A DNA stretch of 32,000 nucleotides from Fastidiosibacter lacustris (lineage in GTDB: Bacteria; Pseudomonadota; Gammaproteobacteria; Francisellales; Francisellaceae). The DNA is taken from assembly GCF_003428155.1 (NCBI RefSeq), contig NZ_QLIR01000002.1, positions 60,001 through 92,000 on the forward strand. The letters run 5' to 3'. The notes beneath the pieces are model-generated. The model saw only the letters and a program-made list of their open reading frames with translations, made no database searches and was not told the origin of the DNA. This document shows, in pieces, positions 7,269 through 18,060 of the stretch (position 1 is the first letter of the stretch; every line of letters starts with the position of its first letter). The position numbers and the translations under genes are program-made.

Positions 7269-9194
7269 ATGAAGAAAAATGAATTTTTGCGAAATGCACT
7301 GTTCTGGGGGCTTATTGCCATTGGATTAGTGTTTATTTTTAGCAATATGAGTACTAAGACAGATTCATCAACAGCGATGAAGTACTCAAGCTTTATTCAA
7401 CAACTTAATAGTGGCAGCATTCAATCGGTCATGGTTGATGGACGTACTTTTATCGGTACGACGGATACAGGAGAAAAGTTTACAACTTATGCTCCATTAC
7501 TTGATCAAAGCATTGTTGATCAAATGCTGAGTAAGAATACGGAGGTTTCAGCTAAAGCGCCTGAGAAACCAAGTTTACTATTGGCATTTTTATTTAATTG
7601 GCTACCACTTTTATTGATTGCTGGTTTCTTTATTTTTCTGATGATGCGTGCAGGCGGTGGCAAAAGTGGAGCTTTTTCATTTGGTAAGAGTAAGGCCAAG
7701 CTTTTAGGTGAAGACCAAATTAAGGTTACACTTGCTGATGTCGCTGGTGTCGATGAAGCAAAAGAAGAGGTCAGTGAAATTGTGGATTTCTTAAAAAATC
7801 CGGCTAAATACGAAAAAATTGGCGGTAAAATTCCTAAAGGTGTATTAATGGTGGGACCTCCTGGGACAGGTAAAACGCTATTAGCGCGTGCGATTGCAGG
7901 TGAAGCTAAAGTTCCGTTTTTCTCAATTTCAGGTTCCGATTTCGTTGAAATGTTTGTTGGGGTTGGCGCATCTCGAGTTCGAGACATGTTTGAACAAGCA
8001 AAAAGACGTGCACCTTGTATTATTTTTATTGATGAAATTGATGCTGTTGGACGTCATCGTGGCGCAGGTCTAGGAGGTGGACACGATGAGCGTGAACAAA
8101 CGTTAAACCAAATGCTCGTTGAAATGGATGGTTTTGCCGATAATGAAGGTGTGATTGTCATTGCTGCAACTAACCGTCCTGATGTTTTAGATCCTGCGTT
8201 ATTGCGTCCTGGTCGTTTTGACAGACAAGTAACGGTTGGTTTACCAAGTGTCAAAGGTCGTGAGCAGATTCTTAAAGTACATATGCGTAAAGTAGCAGTT
8301 GGCGAGGAGGTGCGTGTTGATTGGATTGCGCGCGGCACATCTGGTTTCTCAGGGGCTGAGCTTGCTAACTTGGTCAATGAAGCTGCTCTTTTTGCTGCAC
8401 GTTCCAACAAAGAAATTGTTGGAATGGAGGAGTTTGAAAAGGCGAAAGACAAAATCTTAATGGGAGCAGAACGCCGTTCTATGGCAATGAGTGATGAGCA
8501 AAAACGCTTAACTGCGTATCATGAAGCAGGACACGCTATTGTTGGTCGTTTGGTGCCAGATCATGATCCTGTGTATAAAGTGAGCATTATCCCTAGAGGA
8601 CGCGCATTAGGCGTTACAATGTATTTACCAGATGGTGATCAAGTCAGTCAATCGCGTGAACAACTACTTAGTCGATTATCGAGCATCTTTGGTGGGCGGA
8701 TTGCAGAAGAGCTTATTTTTGGCTATGACAAGGTGACAACTGGAGCTTCAAATGATATTCAAGTTGCAACTAATATTGCTAGAAGCATGGTTACAAAATG
8801 GGGGTTATCAAACAAGATGGGACCAATCTTGTTTGACGAGGATGATCAGCAACCATTTTTAGGGCAAAGTATGAGTAAAAGCCCTAAACATTTCTCAGAT
8901 AAAACCGCGTTAGATATTGACGAGGAAGTACGTCGCTTGATTGATGAAAATTATGCAAGGGCAGAAAAAATCCTACGTGAGAACGTTGACATTCTCCATG
9001 CTATGGCAGAGGCGTTGATGAAATATGAAACGATTGATTCAATGCAAGTAGATGACTTAATGGCGCGTCGTGAAGTCAGAGAACCAGGTGACTGGGGAGA
9101 TAGTTATGTTCCTAAAGAGGAAAAGCAAACTATAGCAAATAGACCAAGAAACAATGAATCATCTAATGTGTCAGAAACCACTCTAAAAGAGTAA
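7269..9194 (+). CDS. ftsH: ATP-dependent zinc metalloprotease FtsH
   Basis: Two N-terminal TM helices are present. Walker A is GPPGTGKT, Walker B is IIFIDEID, the second region of homology is [19 protein letters not shown], and the zinc site is HEAGHA. Length is 641 aa. Confidence 0.97.
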
Positions 9195-9318: not shown

Positions 9319-10545
9319 TTAAACATCTTGAGATTTTTGCTCAAACTGAGTGTATCTTTTAAATGTCTTTCGTTCTTTGTATTTCCGTGACTGTAAGCTA
9401 AGTATTGCTTTTGCTCTTAGAACATCAAATGAATATCCACGCCCATTTTTATTGATCAATTTAATCAAACCATTGATCGCCTCAGTACAGGCATTAGTAT
9501 ATTGATAGTAAAAGTAATTAAAGATTTCATCCTTCCAGTTGCTCACGGTTTTTGCCACTAACTCATAAAATACTTTAACGTTATCATCAATAAGAGTGAG
9601 CCAAGTGTCATACGCTGCTAATGCTTTTTTTCTATCTGATAACTCAAAAATACAAAAGAAAGCTTCTTTTAGAACATAAACCTGTTCTAATTGAGGGAAT
9701 TTACCAAACCAGTCATATAATATAATTTTTTCCATCTCAGATAAATCACGTTGGTGCTTCAATAATAAATAACGATCATTCTTTAATTGTTTTCTCTCTT
9801 TGTGTGATAAGGCAGACTCAATTGATTTTCTTGCTTTTTCAAGCGCCTCTTGTGCTAATTTGACGACATGAAATTTATCAATGACAACAACAGCGTGTGG
9901 TAAAAGCGCTTTCACAACACTATGGTAAGGGCGCCACATATCAATTGAGACGACAGAGATTTTATGTCTATCAGGTAAGTTACTAATGTATTTTGACAGT
10001 GTCACTTTATTGCGATCAACAAGCATATCAATAAGGCATTTTTCTTTAACGTTTGTAATCACACATCGAGCTTTTCCAATCAGATGTGCCTCATCAATAC
10101 CAAGTATTGTTGGTGTAATTGGTTTGTAGCTATTTATTTCTGGCGTTAATGATTCTTTAAATATTCTTCTTACCGTTTTCTCATCTAGACCAATTTCATC
10201 CGCAACAGATTGGAAAGTCTTATTGAACGCATTTTTATAAATATACTCGTGCAATCGATTTGTCATCAATGCTTTTTCGTGCATCTCACACGAGTGCTGA
10301 TATAAGGTAGCACCACAGTCTTTGCATTTATAGCGTCTACGCTTAAGATAAATACCAACAAACAACCCATGTAATGGAATGTCACGATAAAGTGTTGTTT
10401 TGCTGCCATTTTTAATCAGCTTACCAGTATTACAGGATTTACAGGTGGTCGGATCAATGACTATTTCAGCATTGATATGGCATGTATGATCAGCATCCTT
10501 TTTAATATTAATGACACGAATATCACTTAGTTGTAAGTTGCCCAC
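9319..10545 (-). CDS. ISL3 family transposase
   Basis: The N-terminus has a zinc-finger region (HTCHI, CKSC, YKCKDCG). The DDE_Tnp_ISL3 core is present (ILGIDEAHL, VSIDMWRPY, VIDKFHVVK). The start is a GTG at 10545, preceded by AAAAGG. Confidence 0.9.
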   Translation of the reverse strand: MGNLQLSDIRVINIKKDADHTCHINAEIVIDPTTCKSCNTGKLIKNGSKTTLYRDIPLHGLFVGIYLKRRRYKCKDCGATLYQHSCEMHEKALMTNRLHEYIYKNAFNKTFQSVADEIGLDEKTVRRIFKESLTPEINSYKPITPTILGIDEAHLIGKARCVITNVKEKCLIDMLVDRNKVTLSKYISNLPDRHKISVVSIDMWRPYHSVVKALLPHAVVVIDKFHVVKLAQEALEKARKSIESALSHKERKQLKNDRYLLLKHQRDLSEMEKIILYDWFGKFPQLEQVYVLKEAFFCIFELSDRKKALAAYDTWLTLIDDNVKVFYELVAKTVSNWKDEIFNYFYYQYTNACTEAINGLIKLINKNGRGYSFDVLRAKAILSLQSRKYKERKTFKRYTQFEQKSQDV

Positions 10546-13500
10546 TGTCTGCCTTTTCAGAATAAATCATATCTGCAATCAAAGAAGTAATTAATGCCAT
10601 TTTTTCTTTTTGTCCTAGCGCTTGCATGCTTAAATCCGTATGAGTACGTAGACTATCTACAACAGCTCTTTCTACTGATTGCGGCAAACTTCCCTCCATT
10701 GCGCGCTGTTTATCGTTAGCATGAATTTGTGCCATGGTTTTTTCATCTTTTTTCACTTTATCTTTAACACTGGTCACAAAATTGATAGCATCTTCATCAC
10801 TAAAGTCCCCCGAAAATAGCTTATTGAATTGATCGATAATTTTGCTCAAAACTTCAGTTTTCTGATCTCGTGCTTTAGCTTGACCTGGGTTAATGGCATC
10901 TATTTTGCTGCCTTTCAAGTCAATGCTTTGGGTTGCCTGTTTAGTTAGCTTGTAGTTAGTAAGTACCACATCGCCAATATCAACCTCAGGTGCTAGTTCA
11001 GTGGTATATAAATTTGGCAACAAGCCACGCGCATAACTTGAGAATTTTTCTAGTTCAATATCATTATAATCATGCACCTGAGACAAGAAGTCGTACATTC
11101 TGATAAAGGTTGATAACGATTTTTTAAACACATCTAAGTAATTTTTGGCTTCTGAGACTTCTTTTAGCTGTGAGTTTGCATTTTTGATAGCAATCTCATC
11201 ATTAGAATCCTTTGCGCGATTAAGCTCAAGTTGTGCGTGCTTGATTGCCTCAATAGTCTGTCTATAACGCCCTTTAAATCTATCTGCTGCGGGCTTAATG
11301 GCAGCACTCATTAGATTTTGAAGGTTCTTGTGCTGATAAAATACTGCCGAATAAGCATTTATTTCAAGTGTGGTAAATATACCATATTCATCAAGCTTTT
11401 CATAAAGCTCATACACTAAATTTTCATCAGTTACATCGGTGATTTCAGCCGCCTTATAGTATGGCTCAAACGCTTCTTTTATATCTTGAGCTTTATTGAC
11501 AAAATCTAAGATAAAAACATGATCTTTGCCGGTATAGGTGCGATTTAAGCGTGATAATGTCTGTACAGCATCAACACCACTTAATTTCTTATCAACATAC
11601 ATAGCGCAAAGCTTTGGTTGGTCAAAGCCTGTTTGAAATTTATTAGCAACAAGCATGACTTGGTAATCATCCGTATCAAAGGCATCACGCATATCACGCC
11701 CCTTTAATGTAGGATTCATATTGAGCTCAGTATATTCCTTTTCATCCCCTTGATAATCATCATTAACTTTACCAGAGAAAGCAACCATTGCTGCAACGTT
11801 ATCAAAAAGTGGATTACCTTTATTTTTTTCTAAAAAGCGATCAAACTCAATTTTATATCTTACCGCGGCCTTGCGTGAGGAGGTAACCACCATTGCCTTG
11901 GCTTGGTAGTTTAATAATGATTTAATTGAAGTGGCAAAGTGGTGAAGAATAATGTCAATCTTCTGTGCAATCGCATAAGGATGTAAAGTGGTATAGCGCT
12001 TAAGTTTGATTTTTGCCTGCTTGGTTTCTACTTCACGCTCGCCATCTTTTGAGATAATCTTTAACGCGGTTTCATAGGTTGTATAATCTTTCAAAACATC
12101 GAGAATAAATCCTTCTTCAATGGCTTGTTGCATCGTGTATACATGAAATGGCAATGGCGGATTGTCCTTGCTTGTGGGGTTATTTGGGTTTGCAGGTCGT
12201 CCAAACAGCTCCATCGTTTTGTGTTTTGGTGTAGCAGTGAATGCAAAAAAACTGATATTGGTTAGTTTGCCTTTACTCTCAAGAGTTGCATTTAATACAT
12301 CCTCAGCACTCATCTCATCATCAAGCATTTCAGCATTTAATACTTCCTTCATTTTTTGCGCTGTTTTGCCTGATTGAGATGAATGCGCTTCATCGGCAAT
12401 AATGGCAAAGTTTTTGTCCTTTAATGTGGTTGTTTTTTGTATCTCTTCCAACACAAAAGGGAAGGTTTGAATCGTCACAGGAATGATGGCAGCACCATCT
12501 TTTAAGGCGACAGCAAGCTGATTAGATTTGCTTTGAAAGTCCGAGTTTCTCTCAATAGGTACCACTAAGCCGTCAACTTGCTCAAATTGTTTGATCGTTT
12601 GTTGTAGCTGACTGTCCAAAACCGTGCGATCGGTAATTACAATTACGGTATCAAAGTAACGCCTGCCTTCATTACTATGCAATGATGATAATTGATGCGC
12701 AAGCCATGCAATAGAGTTAGACTTGCCACTGCCAGCACTATGCTGGATTAAATATTTCTGACCAACCTTTTCAACATGCACGACCTCTAGTAATTTCCTA
12801 ACCACATCAAGCTGATGATAACGCGGGAAAATTAACGCTTCTTTTTTCTTGATAACGCCTTCAGCCGTTGTTTTTTCTTCAACTTGAAGGTGCATGAATT
12901 TAGCTAAAATATTGAGCAAACTCTCTTTGCTTAAAACTTCCTGCCATAAATATTCAGTTGCAAAGCCCTCTGGTTTATGCGGATTGCCTTTACCGCCATT
13001 ATGACCTTTGTTGAAAGGCAAGAAAAAGGTATTTTTGCCTTCAAGCTTAGTCGTCATATACACTTCATCGGTACTCACTGCAAAATGCACCAACGCACCA
13101 CGCTTGAAAGTAAGCAATGGCTCATCTTTACGTGTCGGCTTATCTTTTGGTAAACGATCTGATTTATATTGCTCAATGGCATCTTCAACCGTTTGCGTAA
13201 AGTCGGTTTTTAACTCGATGGTCGCAACAGGGATACCATTGACAAATAACACCAAATCAATGCTATTTTTATTATTTTCAGAATAAAATACTTGCCTGAC
13301 TACGCGACAAATATTGGCATGATAATTACGTTCCAAAGTCTCATTATGTAACTGCGGTTTAAATTGGCATAGTTTTAATCTTGCTGGATGTGCTTTTATT
13401 TCATGTCGCAAATAATGCAAAGCACCTTTATCATGAATTTTTTTAGCAACAAGTTTGGTAATTTCATCATCTGCTTTATCTTTAAAGCGTAGTTGATATT

Positions 13501-13672
13501 TCTCATAGGCTTCAGATTGTGTCATTTTAATATAATCGAGTAAATCCTCTGTGTATAACGCCAAAGATTTATCATAACGACTTGAAACACCTTCAACCCA
13601 GCCGCATTCGGGTATGCACATATCTAAAACAACTTGCTGTTCCATTTTTTTCTCGTGATGTTTTGTACTCAT
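10523..13672 (-). CDS. hsdR: type I restriction endonuclease subunit R (HsdR)
   Basis: The N-terminal PD-(D/E)xK nuclease block is IDLVLFVNGIPVATIELK. SF2 helicase motifs are present: QHSAGSGKS, IADEAHSSQ, FTATP and QTLSRLNRT. At 1049 aa it looks full length. Its start overlaps the upstream stop (ATGA). Confidence 0.93.
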   Translation of the reverse strand: MSTKHHEKKMEQQVVLDMCIPECGWVEGVSSRYDKSLALYTEDLLDYIKMTQSEAYEKYQLRFKDKADDEITKLVAKKIHDKGALHYLRHEIKAHPARLKLCQFKPQLHNETLERNYHANICRVVRQVFYSENNKNSIDLVLFVNGIPVATIELKTDFTQTVEDAIEQYKSDRLPKDKPTRKDEPLLTFKRGALVHFAVSTDEVYMTTKLEGKNTFFLPFNKGHNGGKGNPHKPEGFATEYLWQEVLSKESLLNILAKFMHLQVEEKTTAEGVIKKKEALIFPRYHQLDVVRKLLEVVHVEKVGQKYLIQHSAGSGKSNSIAWLAHQLSSLHSNEGRRYFDTVIVITDRTVLDSQLQQTIKQFEQVDGLVVPIERNSDFQSKSNQLAVALKDGAAIIPVTIQTFPFVLEEIQKTTTLKDKNFAIIADEAHSSQSGKTAQKMKEVLNAEMLDDEMSAEDVLNATLESKGKLTNISFFAFTATPKHKTMELFGRPANPNNPTSKDNPPLPFHVYTMQQAIEEGFILDVLKDYTTYETALKIISKDGEREVETKQAKIKLKRYTTLHPYAIAQKIDIILHHFATSIKSLLNYQAKAMVVTSSRKAAVRYKIEFDRFLEKNKGNPLFDNVAAMVAFSGKVNDDYQGDEKEYTELNMNPTLKGRDMRDAFDTDDYQVMLVANKFQTGFDQPKLCAMYVDKKLSGVDAVQTLSRLNRTYTGKDHVFILDFVNKAQDIKEAFEPYYKAAEITDVTDENLVYELYEKLDEYGIFTTLEINAYSAVFYQHKNLQNLMSAAIKPAADRFKGRYRQTIEAIKHAQLELNRAKDSNDEIAIKNANSQLKEVSEAKNYLDVFKKSLSTFIRMYDFLSQVHDYNDIELEKFSSYARGLLPNLYTTELAPEVDIGDVVLTNYKLTKQATQSIDLKGSKIDAINPGQAKARDQKTEVLSKIIDQFNKLFSGDFSDEDAINFVTSVKDKVKKDEKTMAQIHANDKQRAMEGSLPQSVERAVVDSLRTHTDLSMQALGQKEKMALITSLIADMIYSEKADSGQLTTK

Positions 13673-14130
13673 TTCTTGCCTCTTCCCTTTGGTAATTGAT
13701 CAATGACCTTATCAAAATCACTTAACCGCTGATCGTTATGCTTTATCTCATTGGCATGAAATGTATCATAAGCTTGCTCTGCTAATTGATTAGTTGCCCA
13801 TTGGCGGAATCTTGTTGCAACATGAGATCTAACCCGATATCCCACTGAGATGATCATATCCAAATTATAATAATCAACAGCCCTATTTACTTGTCTCTCA
13901 CCCTCAAATTGAACTGTTCGGAAATTCCGAACAGTTGAAATTTGTTCAAGCTCATCTTCTTCATAGATATGTTTAATGTGTTCACTAATAGTTGATTTTG
14001 CAACTTGAAATAACTCAGCCATGCTTTTTTGAGTAAGCCAAACGGTCTCATCTTGCAAGCGCACTTCTATTTTGGTTTTACCTGATTCAGTCTGATAGAT
14101 AATAAATTGAGATTGATTTTCAATCGACAT
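13669..14130 (-). CDS. RhuM-family protein, short form (N-terminal HTH region only)
   Basis: IIYQTESGKTKIEVRLQDETVWLTQKSMAELF...TISEHIKHIY...YYNLDMIISVGYRVRSHVATRFRQWAT matches the conserved N-terminal part of RhuM virulence-family proteins. I chose the ATG at 14130 because it overlaps the hsdS stop as TGATG. The ORF track's GTG at 14139 is the alternative. Confidence 0.7.
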   Translation of the reverse strand: MSIENQSQFIIYQTESGKTKIEVRLQDETVWLTQKSMAELFQVAKSTISEHIKHIYEEDELEQISTVRNFRTVQFEGERQVNRAVDYYNLDMIISVGYRVRSHVATRFRQWATNQLAEQAYDTFHANEIKHNDQRLSDFDKVIDQLPKGRGKK

Positions 14131-15386
14131 CAAATGCACTCCCTTACGTCAACTTTGCCTGTGACCACAGCGGTGATTAAGGCAGTACGTTTTTCTTTTA
14201 GTAGCTCAATTGCCTGTTCAGCTTTGGTAATGGTTTGGTCTATTTTAGCGGTTTGTTGGTCTAGATAATTGGCTATGGCGGTTTGTTCTTGAAGTGAAGG
14301 TAAACCTATAGTTATGTTATTTAAATCCTCCTGCGTCATACTAGGAAGGGCAGTACTGGTAGAATAGAAATCAAAATTTATTACCGTAGATCTATAGAAG
14401 ATAAATTTAGGGTTACGGTTTGCTTCGATAATTGAATAAAACATTGTATCTACTGTCCAGAACTTACCATTAATTAATAAAGGTTTATCAATTGTACCTT
14501 TTCTTCCAAATAAAATAGAAACTCCTTCATACAGATAATTAGATGCTCTTGCAAATTCACCTCCTGAACCCATTACAGGGTATCCTCCTGTATCTGTTTG
14601 TATGTTTTTATAGTCTTGACCATTTTTTATCTTTAAAGAATATTTCATTTTTTGAACAACCCAATGCTCAGGCACCTCCCCCAACCACTCAACCCCACTA
14701 TTTTTCATTTTAACCGTTGGATCTAAGCCTTTGGTCACACAATGGGTAATTAAAGCTGTGCGTTTTTCTTTGGAAAGTGCAATTAGCTTTTGATAGTGCT
14801 CAATAAGCTTATCTATTTTTGTGGTTTGTTGGTCTAGGTAGTTGGCGATGGTGGTTTGTTCTTGGCGTGGTGGCAATAATCCAAAAAGGTAGCACAGCCT
14901 TTCAGCTTTAATCCCAAGGGCAGTTGACCCAGATGCATACAAATATAGGCTAACTTGAAATGAATATGACATTATGAAATATTTAAGAAAATAGTTACAA
15001 AGTTGATTTGAACGCCCTCTGAACTTAATAATTCGTTGCGCTAATGCAATTTCTTCATTGTCAATATTTGCAACTTCACCCAATGGTGCTTCTGTAGTAA
15101 AAACCACATCACTAATCTGAGGAAGACCTCTAGACATAACCTCTGAATAATCGTTAGCAGTAATATATTCTTGTGAAAGTGTATAATCAATTTTACCTTT
15201 TTTAATATTCCTTGCTGTAACTAGGAAAATTCCTTCAGTATGCTTTTCAGGGGTCTTACCTCTATAATCAACTATTGATTCCATCATTTTCTTGAATCCA
15301 ATAACCACCCAACCCTCAGGCACTTCCCCCAACCACTCAACACCACTCTCTTTATATTTTGGATAAGGCTTCAGTTTACCACTCAC
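14130..15386 (-). CDS. hsdS: type I restriction-modification specificity subunit (HsdS), two target-recognition domains
   Basis: The architecture is duplicated. GVEWLGEVPEGWVV and GVEWLGEVPEHWVV open the two TRDs. Two conserved helical spacers are present (EQTTIANYLDQQTTKIDKLI...KEKRTALIT and EQTAIANYLDQQTAKIDQTI...KEKRTALIT). The GTG start overlaps the upstream stop (GTGA). Confidence 0.9.
   Translation of the reverse strand: MSGKLKPYPKYKESGVEWLGEVPEGWVVIGFKKMMESIVDYRGKTPEKHTEGIFLVTARNIKKGKIDYTLSQEYITANDYSEVMSRGLPQISDVVFTTEAPLGEVANIDNEEIALAQRIIKFRGRSNQLCNYFLKYFIMSYSFQVSLYLYASGSTALGIKAERLCYLFGLLPPRQEQTTIANYLDQQTTKIDKLIEHYQKLIALSKEKRTALITHCVTKGLDPTVKMKNSGVEWLGEVPEHWVVQKMKYSLKIKNGQDYKNIQTDTGGYPVMGSGGEFARASNYLYEGVSILFGRKGTIDKPLLINGKFWTVDTMFYSIIEANRNPKFIFYRSTVINFDFYSTSTALPSMTQEDLNNITIGLPSLQEQTAIANYLDQQTAKIDQTITKAEQAIELLKEKRTALITAVVTGKVDVRECI
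14239..14291. repeat. intragenic direct repeat in hsdS (C-terminal conserved spacer), copy 1
   Basis: This 53-nt segment matches 14822..14874 at 47/53 positions in direct orientation. Confidence 0.85.
14822..14874. repeat. intragenic direct repeat in hsdS (central conserved spacer), copy 2
   Basis: This 53-nt segment matches 14239..14291 at 47/53 positions. A second repeat pair lies at 14667..14699 and 15315..15347 (31/33). Confidence 0.85.
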
Positions 15387-15991
15387 TGCTTGTCTCCTTG
15401 CGGAAAGGGAATCACATTATCAATACCAGCGACATTTTCGCCCTCATTAATGCAATCGCCATCAAGATACGACTGCCAAAGCGCAATTGGTTTAGTGTAC
15501 TCTTTTTTAGTATGTGGGTTGGTGATTAAGGCACTTTGCCAGTAATCCATTGTTTTATTACAAACTATTTGACTCACTTCACCATGGCGGAAACATTCAA
15601 ACTCTAGGATTTGTTTAAATTGATTGAGATGTGTCGTCACACTGCGATTATCCGTTTTACAAAAATCAAGCTGCTTTAACTGTGGCTCAAAATAATCACG
15701 AATCTGGCAACCGTAGTCTTCAAACCTTGGAATTTCAAGCTCATTAATCGCCCATTCGATCATTGCTGGCAGCGAATCAAAGAGATATTTTGCACCACCT
15801 ATTTCAAACAATGGGATAGCTAATGTGACTCGCGTGTTAACGTGCATAAACACGGCAACATCTTTGCGTTGGATTTTTAACAAATCAACTGCCCAATCAT
15901 CATAAAAAGGTAAAGACTGCTCTTTTGATTGTGGCAAGTCCATTATTTTAAGCCTGCTTGCCATTTTAGCCGTTAATCTAAATTGGGCCAT
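15383..15991 (-). CDS. uncharacterised 202-aa protein embedded between hsdM and hsdS
   Basis: The ORF is clean, with AAGGGA 8 nt before the ATG at 15991. Its stop overlaps the hsdS start. It has no signal peptide or TM segment. The N-terminal pattern (RLTAKMASRLKI...DDWAVDLLKIQRKDVAVFMHVNT) faintly recalls DUF6933-type proteins, but that is from memory and unverified. Confidence 0.6.
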   Translation of the reverse strand: MAQFRLTAKMASRLKIMDLPQSKEQSLPFYDDWAVDLLKIQRKDVAVFMHVNTRVTLAIPLFEIGGAKYLFDSLPAMIEWAINELEIPRFEDYGCQIRDYFEPQLKQLDFCKTDNRSVTTHLNQFKQILEFECFRHGEVSQIVCNKTMDYWQSALITNPHTKKEYTKPIALWQSYLDGDCINEGENVAGIDNVIPFPQGDKQ

Positions 15992-16014
15992 TTATGTTTC
16001 CCTTAAAACGCAAA

Positions 16015-16052
16015 AGCCGCTAAAGTGTGCGTGAATCAGAGGCATAGCGGCT
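16015..16052 (-). terminator. possible intra-operon attenuator hairpin between hsdM and downstream genes
   Basis: On the minus-strand RNA, AGCCGCTA (22-nt loop) TAGCGGCT is followed by TTTGCGTTTT. It sits in the only sizeable gap (107 nt) in the operon. The large loop makes it a weak candidate. Confidence 0.25.
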
Positions 16053-16098
16053 ATGTTGCCCCTAAGTATATTCGCAAGGATCCGAAAATGCAAGCACC

Positions 16099-18060
16099 TC
16101 ATGAATGCACCTCGCCCAAAAGCGCTAATATCTCTTTGGTAACTGCATCTAATTCTGCGTCAATTTCTGCTAACGCGCGTGGTGGTTTATACTCGTAAAA
16201 GTAACGATTAAATGGGATCTCATAACCAACAATACCAATGTTACCATCCTTCTCATCGCGTTTACTCTCATCAATCCAGGAATCTGCTACATGCGGTTTG
16301 ACTTCCTTTTCAAAGTAATCATAGATATCCTGTTGTAATGGGATATTTTCATAATCTCTTAAGTCAGTATTTGGCTCGGGGTTGCCTTTGCTATCAACAC
16401 AGATTTCAGCATTATCATTGGTTTGAGAGAAATGTTTTTGCAGTAATTTAAATTGTGCTGCGGTCAGCTTGACATTTAGGTCTTTTATAAATTGATCTCG
16501 CGATAAGTACTCTTCTTTTTTGCAACTTGTTAAGGCATTCAATATTTCCTGTTGTTGTTCATCTTTAAGCTTCAAAAACGCGTTATCCTCTTTAAGCGCA
16601 TTGATGTTGTTCTCGTCTTTTGGGTAAAAGGCAAGCTTTAATGGTCGCTCAATGGTTACCCGTCTAAAACCAAACTCAGTATAATCAAATAACTTACTTG
16701 TCTTAGTTTGTTCAAAGTTGCCATACGCTTGAACAATGTCAGCAATAACATCTTCATCTAAGTATTTACGTTTAGATCCCAATGACTTGCGCATGGGGCT
16801 ACCTTTATCTGCAGCATTAATTAGTTGCACTTTACCTTTGCGCTCAGGTGATTTTTTATTGCTTAACATCCAGATATAAGTAGAGATACCCGTATTAAAA
16901 AACATATCCGTAGGTAAAGCAATGATGGCTTCCAACAAGTCATTTTCAAGCACATAACGCCTGATTTCAGACTCCCCTGAACCAGCGCCACCTGTAAATA
17001 AGGGTGAGCCATTAAGAATAATCCCAATGCGACTGCCACCTTCTTGTGAAGGACGCATTTTTGAAATAAGGTGCATTAAGAACAATAACGAACCGTCACT
17101 CACTCGTGGTAATCCAGCGCCAAAACGCCCGTTATAGCCTTGGATCTTATGTTCATCTTTTACTGCCTTTTCAACCTTTTTCCATTCCACACCAAATGGT
17201 GGATTAGATAGCATATAATCAAATTTTTTAGACGTAAGTTGATCGTCACTTAAGGTGTTGCCAAATTTAATATTGTCCGCATCTTCGCCTTTGATTAAAA
17301 TATCTGCCTTACAAATGGCAAAGGACTCAGGATTCAACTCCTGTCCATAAGTTTTTAAATGGGCATTGGGATTAAGCTCCGCAATATATTCACTGGCTGA
17401 TGTTAGAAAACCGCCTGTGCCAACTGTAGGATCATAGATTGAGCGTACCACGCCTTGATCAGTTAACATCGCATTATCTGCACTGAAAATTAATGAAGTA
17501 GCTAAACGTACAATGTCTCGTGGTGTAAAATGCTCCCCTGCGGTCTCGTTAGACTCCTCGGCAAACTTGCGAATCAACTCCTCAAATAAGTTACCCATTT
17601 CATAATTTGAAACCGCTTCAGGACTTAAATCGCAATCTTCTTTTGTAAAACGCTCGATGATCTTATACAGCAAGTTTGCTTCATCTAGGTAATGTATTTG
17701 ATCTATAAACTTAAATCGATTAAAAATATCTTTGATATTGTCACTAAACGAATCAAGGTAGGTAATAAGGTTTGCTCTTAAGTTATCAGAGTCAGCCTTT
17801 AATTTAGCTAATGTATATTCCGATGTGTTATAAAACGTGTTTTGCGACTTAGCAGTTAAAATGGCATTTAGCGGAATGCCTAAATCTTTGCGTTTGTTGT
17901 ATTCATCGACAACATCTTGCCTTGTCGGCGCAAGAACTGCCTCAACACGCGCTAAAACCGTAAAGGGCAAAATCACCTTACCAAAATCAGAGCGTTTATA
18001 ATCACCGCGCAATAAATCTGCAATTGACCATATCAATGAGGATAAGTTTTTTGTGTTCAT
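16099..18060 (-). CDS. hsdM: type I restriction-modification DNA methyltransferase subunit (HsdM), long form
   Basis: An HsdM_N-like N-terminus (IWSIADLLRGDYK) is present. The AdoMet site is IYDPTVGTGGFL and the catalytic N6-adenine motif is LSNPPFGVEW. A ~200-aa C-terminal extension ends with the GYEIPFNRYFYEYKPPR block seen in long HsdM proteins. Confidence 0.93.
   Translation of the reverse strand: MNTKNLSSLIWSIADLLRGDYKRSDFGKVILPFTVLARVEAVLAPTRQDVVDEYNKRKDLGIPLNAILTAKSQNTFYNTSEYTLAKLKADSDNLRANLITYLDSFSDNIKDIFNRFKFIDQIHYLDEANLLYKIIERFTKEDCDLSPEAVSNYEMGNLFEELIRKFAEESNETAGEHFTPRDIVRLATSLIFSADNAMLTDQGVVRSIYDPTVGTGGFLTSASEYIAELNPNAHLKTYGQELNPESFAICKADILIKGEDADNIKFGNTLSDDQLTSKKFDYMLSNPPFGVEWKKVEKAVKDEHKIQGYNGRFGAGLPRVSDGSLLFLMHLISKMRPSQEGGSRIGIILNGSPLFTGGAGSGESEIRRYVLENDLLEAIIALPTDMFFNTGISTYIWMLSNKKSPERKGKVQLINAADKGSPMRKSLGSKRKYLDEDVIADIVQAYGNFEQTKTSKLFDYTEFGFRRVTIERPLKLAFYPKDENNINALKEDNAFLKLKDEQQQEILNALTSCKKEEYLSRDQFIKDLNVKLTAAQFKLLQKHFSQTNDNAEICVDSKGNPEPNTDLRDYENIPLQQDIYDYFEKEVKPHVADSWIDESKRDEKDGNIGIVGYEIPFNRYFYEYKPPRALAEIDAELDAVTKEILALLGEVHS

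Follow-up and report, generated by a model that had tools for sequence, protein, structure and literature searches.

A DUF6933 gene between hsdM and hsdS in Fastidiosibacter lacustris: a candidate autonomous passenger of a type I restriction-modification operon

The type I restriction-modification (R-M) operon of Fastidiosibacter lacustris carries, between hsdM and hsdS, a 202-aa gene of the DUF6933 (PDC-S63) family. This family has already been flagged as a defence candidate and the gene is not a novel kind of system. Our best explanation, held with moderate confidence, is that it is autonomous accessory cargo, co-expressed with the R-M genes, whose product would act on nucleic acid and serve in defence or in association with it, both this activity and any anti-phage effect being putative. 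Such a gene would gain by being expressed and transferred together with the R-M genes, and would be neither a part of HsdMSR nor held latent by it. The family seems to consist of small stand-alone genes that move with defence islands, toxin-antitoxin (TA) clusters and conjugative elements and nearly always lie downstream in another gene's transcription unit; here the gene has probably long been carried by a complete type I operon.

The gene and its operon

The features discussed here all lie in the window, that is, the whole 32,000-nt stretch of F. lacustris DNA that was analysed.

16099..18060, minus strand: hsdM, 653 aa, first gene of the operon (Pfam HsdM_N and N6_Mtase, E 4e-58)
15992..16098, minus strand: hsdM-DUF6933 spacer, 107 nt, the former abiD leader with an AAGGGA Shine-Dalgarno (SD) sequence (comparison with Facilibium)
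15383..15991, minus strand: DUF6933/PDC-S63 gene, 202 aa (ATG 15991-15989, TGA 15385-15383)
15584..15895 (codons 33-136), minus strand: predicted RNase H-like core, b1-b2-b3-a1-b4-a (AF2 secondary structure)
15404..15421 (codons 191-196), minus strand: DNVIPF motif in the disordered C-terminal tail (pLDDT 47-57)
15394..15399, minus strand: SD sequence of hsdS, AAGGAG, within DUF6933 codons Q198-G199-D200 (read from the sequence)
14130..15386, minus strand: hsdS, 418 aa, two target-recognition domains (two stretches of Pfam Methylase_S)
13669..14139, minus strand: RhuM-family gene (PDC-S05), truncated to 156 aa and likewise an embedded passenger (Pfam Virulence_RhuM and PADLOC)
10523..13672, minus strand: hsdR, 1049 aa (Pfam HSDR_N, SWI2_SNF2, ResIII and T1R_D3-like)
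9319..10545, minus strand: ISL3-family transposase (Pfam DDE_Tnp_ISL3, E 3e-59), overlapping the 3' end of hsdR by 23 nt

By their Pfam matches hsdM, hsdS and hsdR form a complete type I set around the DUF6933 gene. The earlier note had placed a 202-aa ORF between hsdM and hsdS, and its coordinates prove exact, including the ATG at 15991. The AAGGGA that it read as the ribosome binding site lies at 16004-15999, 7 nt 5' of the ATG. A protein 100% identical to this ORF is included in the F. lacustris annotation. Orthologues with 85-88% identity occupy the same operon slot in Facilibium and Cysteiniphilum, and the dN/dS of orthologue pairs (0.10-0.17) indicates that the gene is under purifying selection. 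Together with the occurrence of orthologues in three genera and of 274 family members, these ratios rule out a chance ORF or a pseudogene. HsdM (90-91% identical to the Facilibium and Cysteiniphilum proteins) and HsdR (91-92% in the sister genera) are similarly conserved. In contrast, HsdS is merely 30-40% identical to the HsdS proteins of the orthologous loci.

The stop codon of the ORF shares bases with the GTG start of hsdS (15386-15384) as GTGA, just as the note had read it. The further suggestion that HsdS translation is coupled to that of the upstream ORF stands only in part: the overlap makes coupling plausible, but because hsdS has a strong SD sequence of its own there is no strict dependence. 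The DUF6933 gene is probably co-transcribed with hsdM and hsdS, with initiation of hsdS occurring within its last codons.

The spacer upstream of the gene is ~97% identical, as far as the SD sequence, to the hsdM-abiD spacer of Facilibium, and the AAGGGA ribosome binding site is therefore inherited from a deleted abiD neighbour. Within this spacer neither a promoter, a terminator consensus nor a structured RNA rises above background (fold z -0.55). The ancestral order was hsdM-abiD-DUF6933-hsdS-rhuM-hsdR, from which abiD has here been cleanly deleted and rhuM truncated. It had been assumed that hsdM and hsdS are normally adjacent. An ORF does intervene here, but embedded genes are a frequent feature of type I operons and no exception (Payne et al. 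2024, 10.1101/2024.01.29.577857).

Family membership and predicted fold

The protein matches Pfam DUF6933 (PF22016, a model of 157 positions with a curated gathering threshold of 27 bits) at 65.9 bits (E 4.8e-18), its residues 3-169 aligning with model positions 1-155, and no other Pfam family. Unlike its neighbours, the ORF has no Pfam match to N6_Mtase, Methylase_S, ResIII or HSDR_N. PF22016 is present in all homologues retrieved. DUF6933 proteins are 170-290 aa long, and no informative domain fusions were found among them. One (P0075) has an unannotated C-terminal extension; three others that resembled fusions (P0054, P0058 and P0096) were rejected as repeat-protein artefacts. The PADLOC model PDC-S63 (PDLC05056) matches over its full length (1-201 of 201, E 3.8e-124), and the sister HMMs PDLC05054, 05055 and 05057 match more weakly.

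The PDC families were drawn up from RefSeq proteins whose genes lie inside BREX, DISARM or type I R-M systems, and are regarded as defence candidates, PDC-S63 being a 'guilt-by-embedding' candidate for phage defence (Payne, Hughes, Fineran & Jackson 2024, bioRxiv 10.1101/2024.01.29.577857). The gene here conforms in its full-length HMM match, in its architecture as a single gene and in its same-strand embedding between hsdM and hsdS with hsdR intact downstream; no feature sets it apart from the family. Its promotion as a candidate for an undescribed function is not supported, since both families cover it and the same embedding argument had already been made for PDC-S63. In the literature searched, no paper was found to name PDC-S63, DUF6933 or PF22016, and no experiments were found on any member. 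What is added here for PDC-S63 is the fold assignment, the conserved residues, the tail motif, the census of contexts and a case in which the gene has outlived its R-M host locus.

A transmembrane segment is absent, as the note had said (maximum Kyte-Doolittle 19-residue mean 1.19), and the protein is mildly acidic (pI 5.26, net charge about -6). The AlphaFold (AF2) model has a pLDDT of 85 and a pTM of 0.81. Foldseek matches to it in PDB and BFVD at E <= 0.001 are essentially all catalytic cores of retroviral integrases (E 1e-4, TM 0.42-0.57). The predicted b1-b2-b3-a1-b4-a topology would be that of the integrase/DDE core, an acidic residue (D114/115) follows b4 as it does there, and W61-x-x-D64 of HIV-1 integrase has its counterpart in a WxxD motif aligned with it on b1. 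The likeness is one of predicted fold: the family profile finds nothing below E 0.3 among PDB chains in sequence searches, hhalign against the HIV-1 integrase core gives an insignificant probability of 1%, and the protein matches no rve or DDE Pfam family. It also differs from the integrase/DDE core in lacking b5, the glutamate helix at about +35 and the DD35E spacing, and D36 is replaced by His throughout the Vibrio branch.

The residues D36, R42/K43, H50, D114(115), R116, H121 and N123 form a polar cluster conserved across 274 members and both deep branches, the family-wide constellation being D or H at 36, H/D50, D114/115-R116 and H121-x-N123-D. At position 36, 94% of branch A have D and 98% of branch B have H. 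The topology alone suggests that these residues cluster in space, and in the model they are predicted to occupy the place of the metal- and nucleic-acid-binding site of RNase H-like enzymes. The protein probably binds or processes nucleic acid, and the view that it holds no motif linkable to nuclease chemistry is not supported.

The C-terminal tail carries the pattern [DN]NV[IV]x[FL] followed by basic residues, and both deep branches of the family show it. It is present in the 24%-identical, hsd-embedded Vibrio branch and absent from a non-embedded relative with 55% identity (L014). A role as an R-M-specific docking peptide is ruled out, since copies next to ParAB or HigB, without hsd genes, have the motif too.

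Genomic contexts and loss of neighbours

The contexts of homologues were surveyed in 39 distinct groups, a small sample with crude ORF calls on short metagenome contigs. Type I hsd genes embed or adjoin the homologue in 7-8 of the 39 groups and in 6 of 12 plasmid records. Among these cases are three hsd families unrelated to one another, and the DUF6933 gene (X) takes three positions, namely M-X-S, S-X-R and R-X. The recurrent association with type I R-M that the note had made a test of its claim is thus supported. The M-[abiD]-X-S arrangement occurs in the Fastidiosibacteraceae and in two metagenome loci (L015/16), M-S-X-R-SprT in six Vibrio plasmid records, and M-..-S-R-X in three further loci (L017/18/37). 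Elsewhere, a homologue lies within three genes of hsdR and mrr (L021), and one in Desulfotalea follows a PLD-helicase restriction-like gene. Nevertheless, 31-32 of the 39 groups (~80%) have no hsd neighbour. Other homologues follow MazE-PIN, TacA-TacT, AbiEi/AbiEii (four groups), HEPN-NTase, Fic or HigB modules; further ones adjoin TraD, a MOBP relaxase, TraM, TrwB or ParAB; and about one-third of the contexts consist of housekeeping genes or carry no information. In 36 of 39 loci the gene upstream has the same orientation as the homologue, and in 20 the two are no more than 50 nt apart (binomial P about 0.002-0.006). All-against-all clustering of neighbours found no obligate partner gene; hsd genes are the most recurrent, and nothing is universal.

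The gene also outlasts its neighbours. It is present in every relative examined, whereas abiD and rhuM vary. The loss of abiD has occurred in two related lineages, both of which kept DUF6933, and this rules out AbiD as an obligate partner or antitoxin. In Cysteiniphilum halobium, hsdM, hsdS and hsdR have all been lost by deletion: hsdM has an in-frame internal deletion that leaves 99 aa, and the first 43 residues of HsdS are fused to the C-terminus of HsdR (hsdS(1-43)::hsdR). The DUF6933 gene beside them is intact and 88% identical.

This retention bears on the proposal that the protein is a structural partner of the methylase, that is, a new subunit required by the methyltransferase or restriction complex. 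All that favours it is where the gene lies, with hsdM on one side and hsdS on the other, and the overlap of its stop codon with the hsdS start. A subunit should not persist without the enzyme, nor lack hsd neighbours in most members of its family, and these two observations make such a role unlikely. In addition, the position of the gene varies among hsd loci, most type I systems do without it and it does not co-vary with HsdS specificity. We regard a required subunit as highly improbable.

The earlier note also drew a parallel with PrrC of the E. coli EcoprrI system, which like DUF6933 has no part in R-M itself but lies inside a type I operon and shares its expression. The protein would then be a guard, a latent toxic effector masked by HsdMSR and freed once the enzyme has been put out of action by an anti-restriction protein of a phage. 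The embedding of the gene would suit this, as would the recurrence of its family in or beside three different type I systems. On Vibrio plasmids the family member has been swapped for one with 37% identity between flanks that are still 80-87% identical, a pattern known from arms-race components, and the docking-type motif of the tail could bind a partner. However, the same motif is found in the hsd-free copies with ParAB or HigB neighbours. PrrC, at about 400 aa, combines an ABC-ATPase domain with an ACNase domain at its C-terminus. The DUF6933 protein has no ABC-ATPase or other NTPase domain, a search for the Walker A/B ATPase of PrrC and RloC having given no P-loop or ABC match in Pfam, NCBIfam or PADLOC. 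PrrC is reported to occur almost nowhere but within type I R-M loci (Payne et al. 2024, 10.1101/2024.01.29.577857), whereas DUF6933 genes lie mostly outside them, and the C. halobium copy remains intact and constrained after the loss of hsdMSR, an odd fate for a toxin inhibited by that complex. Because of the missing NTPase domain, the mostly hsd-free homologues and the survival in C. halobium, the analogy is weak and a guard of this kind is quite unlikely.

Another possibility is that the protein modulates restriction, either for the host system, in alleviation or the control of establishment, or, carried by a plasmid or ICE, as a means of tuning or evading type I enzymes and SF2 helicase-nucleases. 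DUF6933 genes often adjoin HsdR or other helicase-nucleases; their neighbours on conjugative elements and plasmids (relaxase, TraD, TraM, coupling protein and ParAB) are typical of anti-restriction sites; and a gene upstream of hsdS would be translated before or with the methylase. The known anti-restriction proteins ArdA and Ocr are highly acidic DNA mimics that come from phages or from the leading regions of plasmids. In contrast, the DUF6933 protein, with its modest charge and mixed alpha/beta fold, is no DNA mimic, its sequence resembles no solved chain at E <= 0.3, and its fold-level matches are integrase cores. No phage copies were found in INPHARED (tblastn with two divergent queries), IMG/VR (two pattern sets) or PHROGs, which rules out a phage-derived anti-defence gene at the available sensitivity. 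Retention in C. halobium, where the R-M system is gone, also speaks against a modulator, and we judge this reading rather unlikely. The RptR type of R-M regulator (PMC12255303), a small DNA-binding repressor, was considered and rejected as unrelated to DUF6933.

The integrase-like core raises the question of a gene without any role in defence, such as a domesticated integrase-core remnant used in DNA processing or in plasmid or ICE maintenance, for which hsd loci would be a 'genomic sink'. Consistent with this are the many plasmid, ICE, IS-rich and TA contexts, the habit of the gene of following unrelated genes, downstream and with no promoter of its own, and the presence of an ISL3 transposase and decayed passengers in the hsd island here. 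Against it, the same hsd slot has been kept across genera and across 37%-identical variants, embedding has occurred in three independent hsd families, and the gene outlasts deletions that removed its neighbours. Because the DDE triad is absent the protein is no transposase, and the gene differs from those of IS transposases in having neither IS-like ends nor an IS-like context. A non-defence mobile-element gene of this sort is possible but doubtful.

Embedded genes as probable cargo of type I operons

The best functional analogy for an autonomous passenger is provided by TgvAB of V. cholerae and the BrxU-type GmrSD enzymes, which are embedded in type I R-M or BREX systems, TgvAB in a type I locus, and act as independent, complementary defences (PMC11411939). 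They belong to the type IV restriction enzymes and their activity against phages has been demonstrated; DUF6933 is a candidate and is unrelated to them in sequence and fold. The passenger view may nonetheless underrate one aspect of the contexts: that the homologues so often lie beside hsd genes and SF2 helicase-nucleases could reflect a functional interaction with restriction enzymes. In one such arrangement, which we think unlikely, the protein would belong to a new class of degenerate RNase H-like sensors or effectors of nucleic acid that partner SF2 helicase-nucleases (HsdR, PLD-helicases or DinG-like helicases), dock through the NV[IV]x[FL] tail and, where restriction is blocked or misdirected, serve as its back-up or modulator. 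This would explain the swapping of divergent alleles at a fixed slot of the hsd module.

Type I R-M operons are emerging as scaffolds for extra immune genes, and PDC-S63/DUF6933 is one of 145 candidates. For this family a natural series is available, consisting of operons with and without abiD, an R-M-deleted locus that has kept DUF6933 and plasmid modules with swapped alleles. In combination with a confident fold model and a list of residues (D36, H50, D114, R116, H121, N123 and DNVIPF), this series would allow a cheap and direct functional test. Should the protein turn out to act in defence as an RNase H-like effector, or to partner restriction helicases, a new mechanism would be added to the concept of embedded defence; if it proved to be free of phenotype, the case would counsel caution about guilt-by-embedding.

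Like DUF6933, the proteins AbiD (Abi_2), RhuM (PDC-S05) and GIY-YIG/DUF4357 (PDC-S14), which are unrelated to it, are exchangeable passengers of hsd operons in the sister genomes. The extent of the truncation of rhuM in F. lacustris can be seen from its Virulence_RhuM match, which is confined to Pfam profile positions 1-82 of 252, and from a full-length version of 336 aa that fills the same slot in metagenome loci L015/L016. The overlap between hsdR and the ISL3 transposase gene recurs in the same two loci.

The DUF6933 gene in its operon

The ORF between hsdM and hsdS runs exactly as the earlier note had placed it, from 15991 to 15383 on the minus strand (202 aa), among the following genes.

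16099-18060, minus strand: hsdM (Pfam HsdM_N and N6_Mtase)
15383-15991, minus strand: DUF6933 gene (Pfam PF22016, PADLOC PDLC05056)
14130-15386, minus strand: hsdS (Pfam, two Methylase_S stretches)
13669-14139, minus strand: truncated RhuM-family ORF (156 aa; PADLOC PDC-S05; Pfam, N-terminal third of the model only)
10523-13672, minus strand: hsdR (Pfam)
9319-10545, minus strand: ISL3-family transposase gene (Pfam)

The claimed AAGGGA Shine-Dalgarno (SD) sequence is present at 16004-15999, 7 nt 5' of the ATG; the TGA stop (15385-15383) lies, as described, within a GTGA whose GTG is the hsdS start; and the protein has no hydrophobic segment, in keeping with the proposed lack of a TM segment. 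A strong SD of hsdS's own (AAGGAG, 15399-15394) is located within the final codons of the DUF6933 ORF. The protein is 100% identical to a 202-aa product annotated in Fastidiosibacter lacustris. In Facilibium subflavum and in two species of Cysteiniphilum, orthologues of 85-88% identity fill the same slot, with pairwise dN/dS values of 0.10-0.17; the ORF is thus a real gene under purifying selection. The truncated RhuM-family ORF is a second embedded passenger and overlaps the stop of hsdS as well as the start of hsdR; full-length versions of 336-339 aa fill this slot in the metagenome loci L015 and L016.

The gene had been put forward as uncharacterised and as a candidate for an undescribed function. 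It matches, however, Pfam DUF6933 (PF22016; 65.9 bits, cutoff 27) and, end to end, the PADLOC model PDLC05056 for the phage defence candidate family PDC-S63 (E 3.8e-124). Payne et al. 2024 gathered genes that lie within BREX, DISARM and type I R-M systems and took out known defence, mobility and housekeeping families, leaving 145 candidate PDCs (bioRxiv 10.1101/2024.01.29.577857). PDC families are defined by embedding, and thus the original argument was the same guilt-by-embedding logic that gave PDC-S63. The observation was correct; the gene belongs to a family that had been listed as a candidate before, and embedding in an R-M operon is in itself no longer surprising. No mention of DUF6933, PF22016 or PDC-S63 was found in the literature searched, and a model for the protein is lacking from both NCBIfam and PHROGs. 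What is new here is a fold assignment, a conserved residue set and tail motif, a natural deletion series and an allele swap on Vibrio plasmids, with which the family lends itself readily to tests.

Among 1.84 billion representative proteins, a profile search gave only 92 matches to the window's subfamily. With a plasmid homologue of 24% identity as the seed, a second large branch emerged, in Vibrio, Photobacterium, Shewanella, Marinomonas, Xenorhabdus, Legionella, Thalassomonas, Colwellia and Desulfotalea, all members of which carry DUF6933 as their sole annotation. The proteins of the family stand alone and are 170-290 aa long, and a search among them for domain fusions gave none that was informative.

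Predicted fold and conserved residues

An alignment of 102 sequences gave a structural model with pLDDT 85 and pTM 0.81; one of seven sequences gave an unusable model (pLDDT 48.6). The predicted secondary structure is b(3-6), a(8-13), b1(33-40), b2(43-50), b3(56-60), a1(67-84), a(91-101), b4(109-112), a(116-136), a(141-153) and a(168-176), followed by a disordered tail (178-202). At E <= 0.001, Foldseek searches of PDB and BFVD returned essentially retroviral integrase catalytic cores only, the best match having an E of 1e-4, with TM scores of 0.42-0.57, depending on normalisation, and an rmsd of 7-9 A. The model thus suggests, with moderate confidence, an RNase H-like fold. In an hhalign alignment with the HIV-1 integrase core, itself not significant, W33-x-x-D36 is paired with W61-x-x-D64. 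The protein lacks the DD35E triad.

Residue conservation among 274 members (hmmalign) in branch A, the window's side of the family, and branch B, the Vibrio side
Position 36: branch A, D 94%; branch B, H 98%
Position 50: branch A, H 96%; branch B, H 47%, D 46%
Position 115: branch A, D 59% (a further 16% with D at 114, as in the window); branch B, D 97%
Position 116: branch A, R 69%; branch B, R 98%
Position 121: branch A, H 83%; branch B, H 95%
Position 123: branch A, N 77%; branch B, N 90%
Position 124: branch A, D 74%; branch B, D 89%

W33 and R42/K43 are near-invariant in both branches of the 274-member set. By topology, the conserved residues would sit at the metal- and substrate-binding site of RNase H-like enzymes, and the protein probably binds or processes nucleic acid, a putative activity that could be mechanistically new.

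Both branches share a short C-terminal motif, [DN]NV[IV]x[FL] followed by basic residues, which comes after a disordered linker of variable length; the window's version is DNVIPF (residues 191-196; 15404-15421, minus strand). This tail looks like a docking peptide and is not confined to hsd-embedded copies. Another subfamily has NLPKRK at its C-terminus in place of this motif.

Genomic neighbourhoods

The earlier note's link to hsd or defence genes stood up to a survey across genome, metagenome and plasmid collections. It covered 39 distinct groups (90% identity) together with the DNA on either side, and type I hsd genes recur more often than any other neighbour (7-8 of the 39). These hsd-linked copies span three unrelated hsd families and three positions. 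With X as the DUF6933 gene, the order is hsdM-[abiD]-X-hsdS-[rhuM or GIY-YIG/DUF4357]-hsdR in Fastidiosibacteraceae and in a 58%-identical relative from a metagenome, DUF6088/AbiEii-hsdM-hsdS-X-hsdR-SprT in six Vibrio plasmid records, and hsdM-..-hsdS-hsdR(EcoEI-type)-X in L017, L018 and L037. The copy in locus L021 is three genes away from hsdR and mrr, and that of Desulfotalea lies directly 3' of a PLD-nuclease/helicase/DUF3427 gene. Remaining groups are found directly 3' of toxin-antitoxin or Abi modules (MazE-PIN, TacA-TacT, AbiEi/AbiEii in four groups, HEPN-NTase, Fic or HigB), in the backbones of conjugative elements or plasmids (TraD, MOBP relaxase, TraM, TrwB coupling protein, ParAB), or adjoining ordinary metabolic genes. 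Thus, the link with type I R-M is genuine and does not depend on lineage, yet it is non-obligate.

The upstream neighbour, whatever its identity, is co-oriented in 36 of the 39 loci, 20 of them with a gap of <=50 nt (binomial P ~0.002-0.006 against a background of 72-75%). Such downstream, co-oriented placement is typical of a passenger that has no promoter of its own. Most economically, this is read as an accessory gene that acts autonomously and is carried by the hsd operon, which it would use for expression and co-transfer; modulation of restriction and a purely mobile-element function jointly take about a third of the probability. On this reading, the gene is one of an increasing number of defence or defence-associated genes lodged within R-M systems, of which TgvAB of Vibrio cholerae is an experimentally proven defence (PMC11411939).

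No phage homologues were found in INPHARED (tblastn, two queries), IMG/VR (two pattern sets) or PHROGs. Two mutually unrelated defence islands with a DUF6933 gene, L017 (266-754; type I R-M) and L068 (2115-2570; PLD-helicase/DUF3427), both lie immediately 3' of smpB, a known integration hotspot region. In conjugative-element backbones of Rickettsiaceae, the gene directly follows traD or a MOBP relaxase gene and precedes parA (L004 and L006, the latter an apparently partial copy, on the Candidatus Tisiphia chromosome; L022, Rickettsia plasmid pRNTEN_2).

Loss and exchange around the gene

The 107-nt spacer between hsdM and the ORF (15992-16098, minus strand) is ~97% identical, through the SD, to the Facilibium hsdM-abiD leader (L002, 8969-9073), and abiD also occupies the hsdM-X junction in an outgroup locus whose DUF6933 is 58% identical. 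Thus abiD (AbiD, Abi_2) was probably ancestral and then cleanly deleted in the window's lineage; the AAGGGA site of the ORF is abiD's, and the spacer a relic. In Cysteiniphilum, both spacer and abiD are absent and hsdM abuts the ORF as TAATG. In C. halobium (L001, NZ_QLIU01000030.1, 9702-10800), an in-frame internal deletion cuts hsdM to 99 aa and the first ~43 codons of hsdS are joined to the last ~20 of hsdR, with the DUF6933 gene intact between the two deletions (dN/dS 0.13 against the sister species). The gene has persisted beyond the loss of its Abi neighbour and of its R-M host.

The earlier note had suggested a latent guard like PrrC, the anticodon nuclease embedded in the EcoprrI hsd operon of E. 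coli. The embedding is similar, but such a guard is unlikely, since the DUF6933 protein lacks an NTPase domain, hsd neighbours are missing from most copies and the gene is retained once hsdMSR is lost. A structural subunit of the methylase, also proposed there, is very unlikely.

Among the Fastidiosibacter and sister-genus loci, HsdS is only 30-40% identical, whereas DUF6933 is 85-88% and HsdM and HsdR are 90-92% identical, so that DUF6933 does not follow HsdS specificity in these loci. The pattern is opposite on Vibrio plasmids. There, a conserved mobile module (L023, L061, L062, L063, L067) consists, in order, of genes for a tyrosine recombinase, DUF6088/AbiEii, HsdM, HsdS, DUF6933, HsdR and an SprT-like metalloprotease. 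Between NZ_OX411214 and pLA16-4 the module flanks are 80-87% identical but the DUF6933 alleles just 37%, the allele in NZ_OX411214 having been swapped jointly with the adjoining hsdS, which points to donors of like architecture being common.

In the window, hsdR and the ISL3 transposase gene lie on the same strand and share 23 nt at the 3' end of hsdR. That this overlap recurs unchanged in the metagenome relative L015 (13932-15230), whose DUF6933 is only 58% identical, indicates that this junction is old, and the R-M island may move together with the ISL3 element. The island adjoins ftsH in both Fastidiosibacter (7269-9194 in the window) and Cysteiniphilum (L001/L003) but in opposite orientation to it, the ftsH-proximal end being hsdM in Cysteiniphilum and hsdR with ISL3 in the window.
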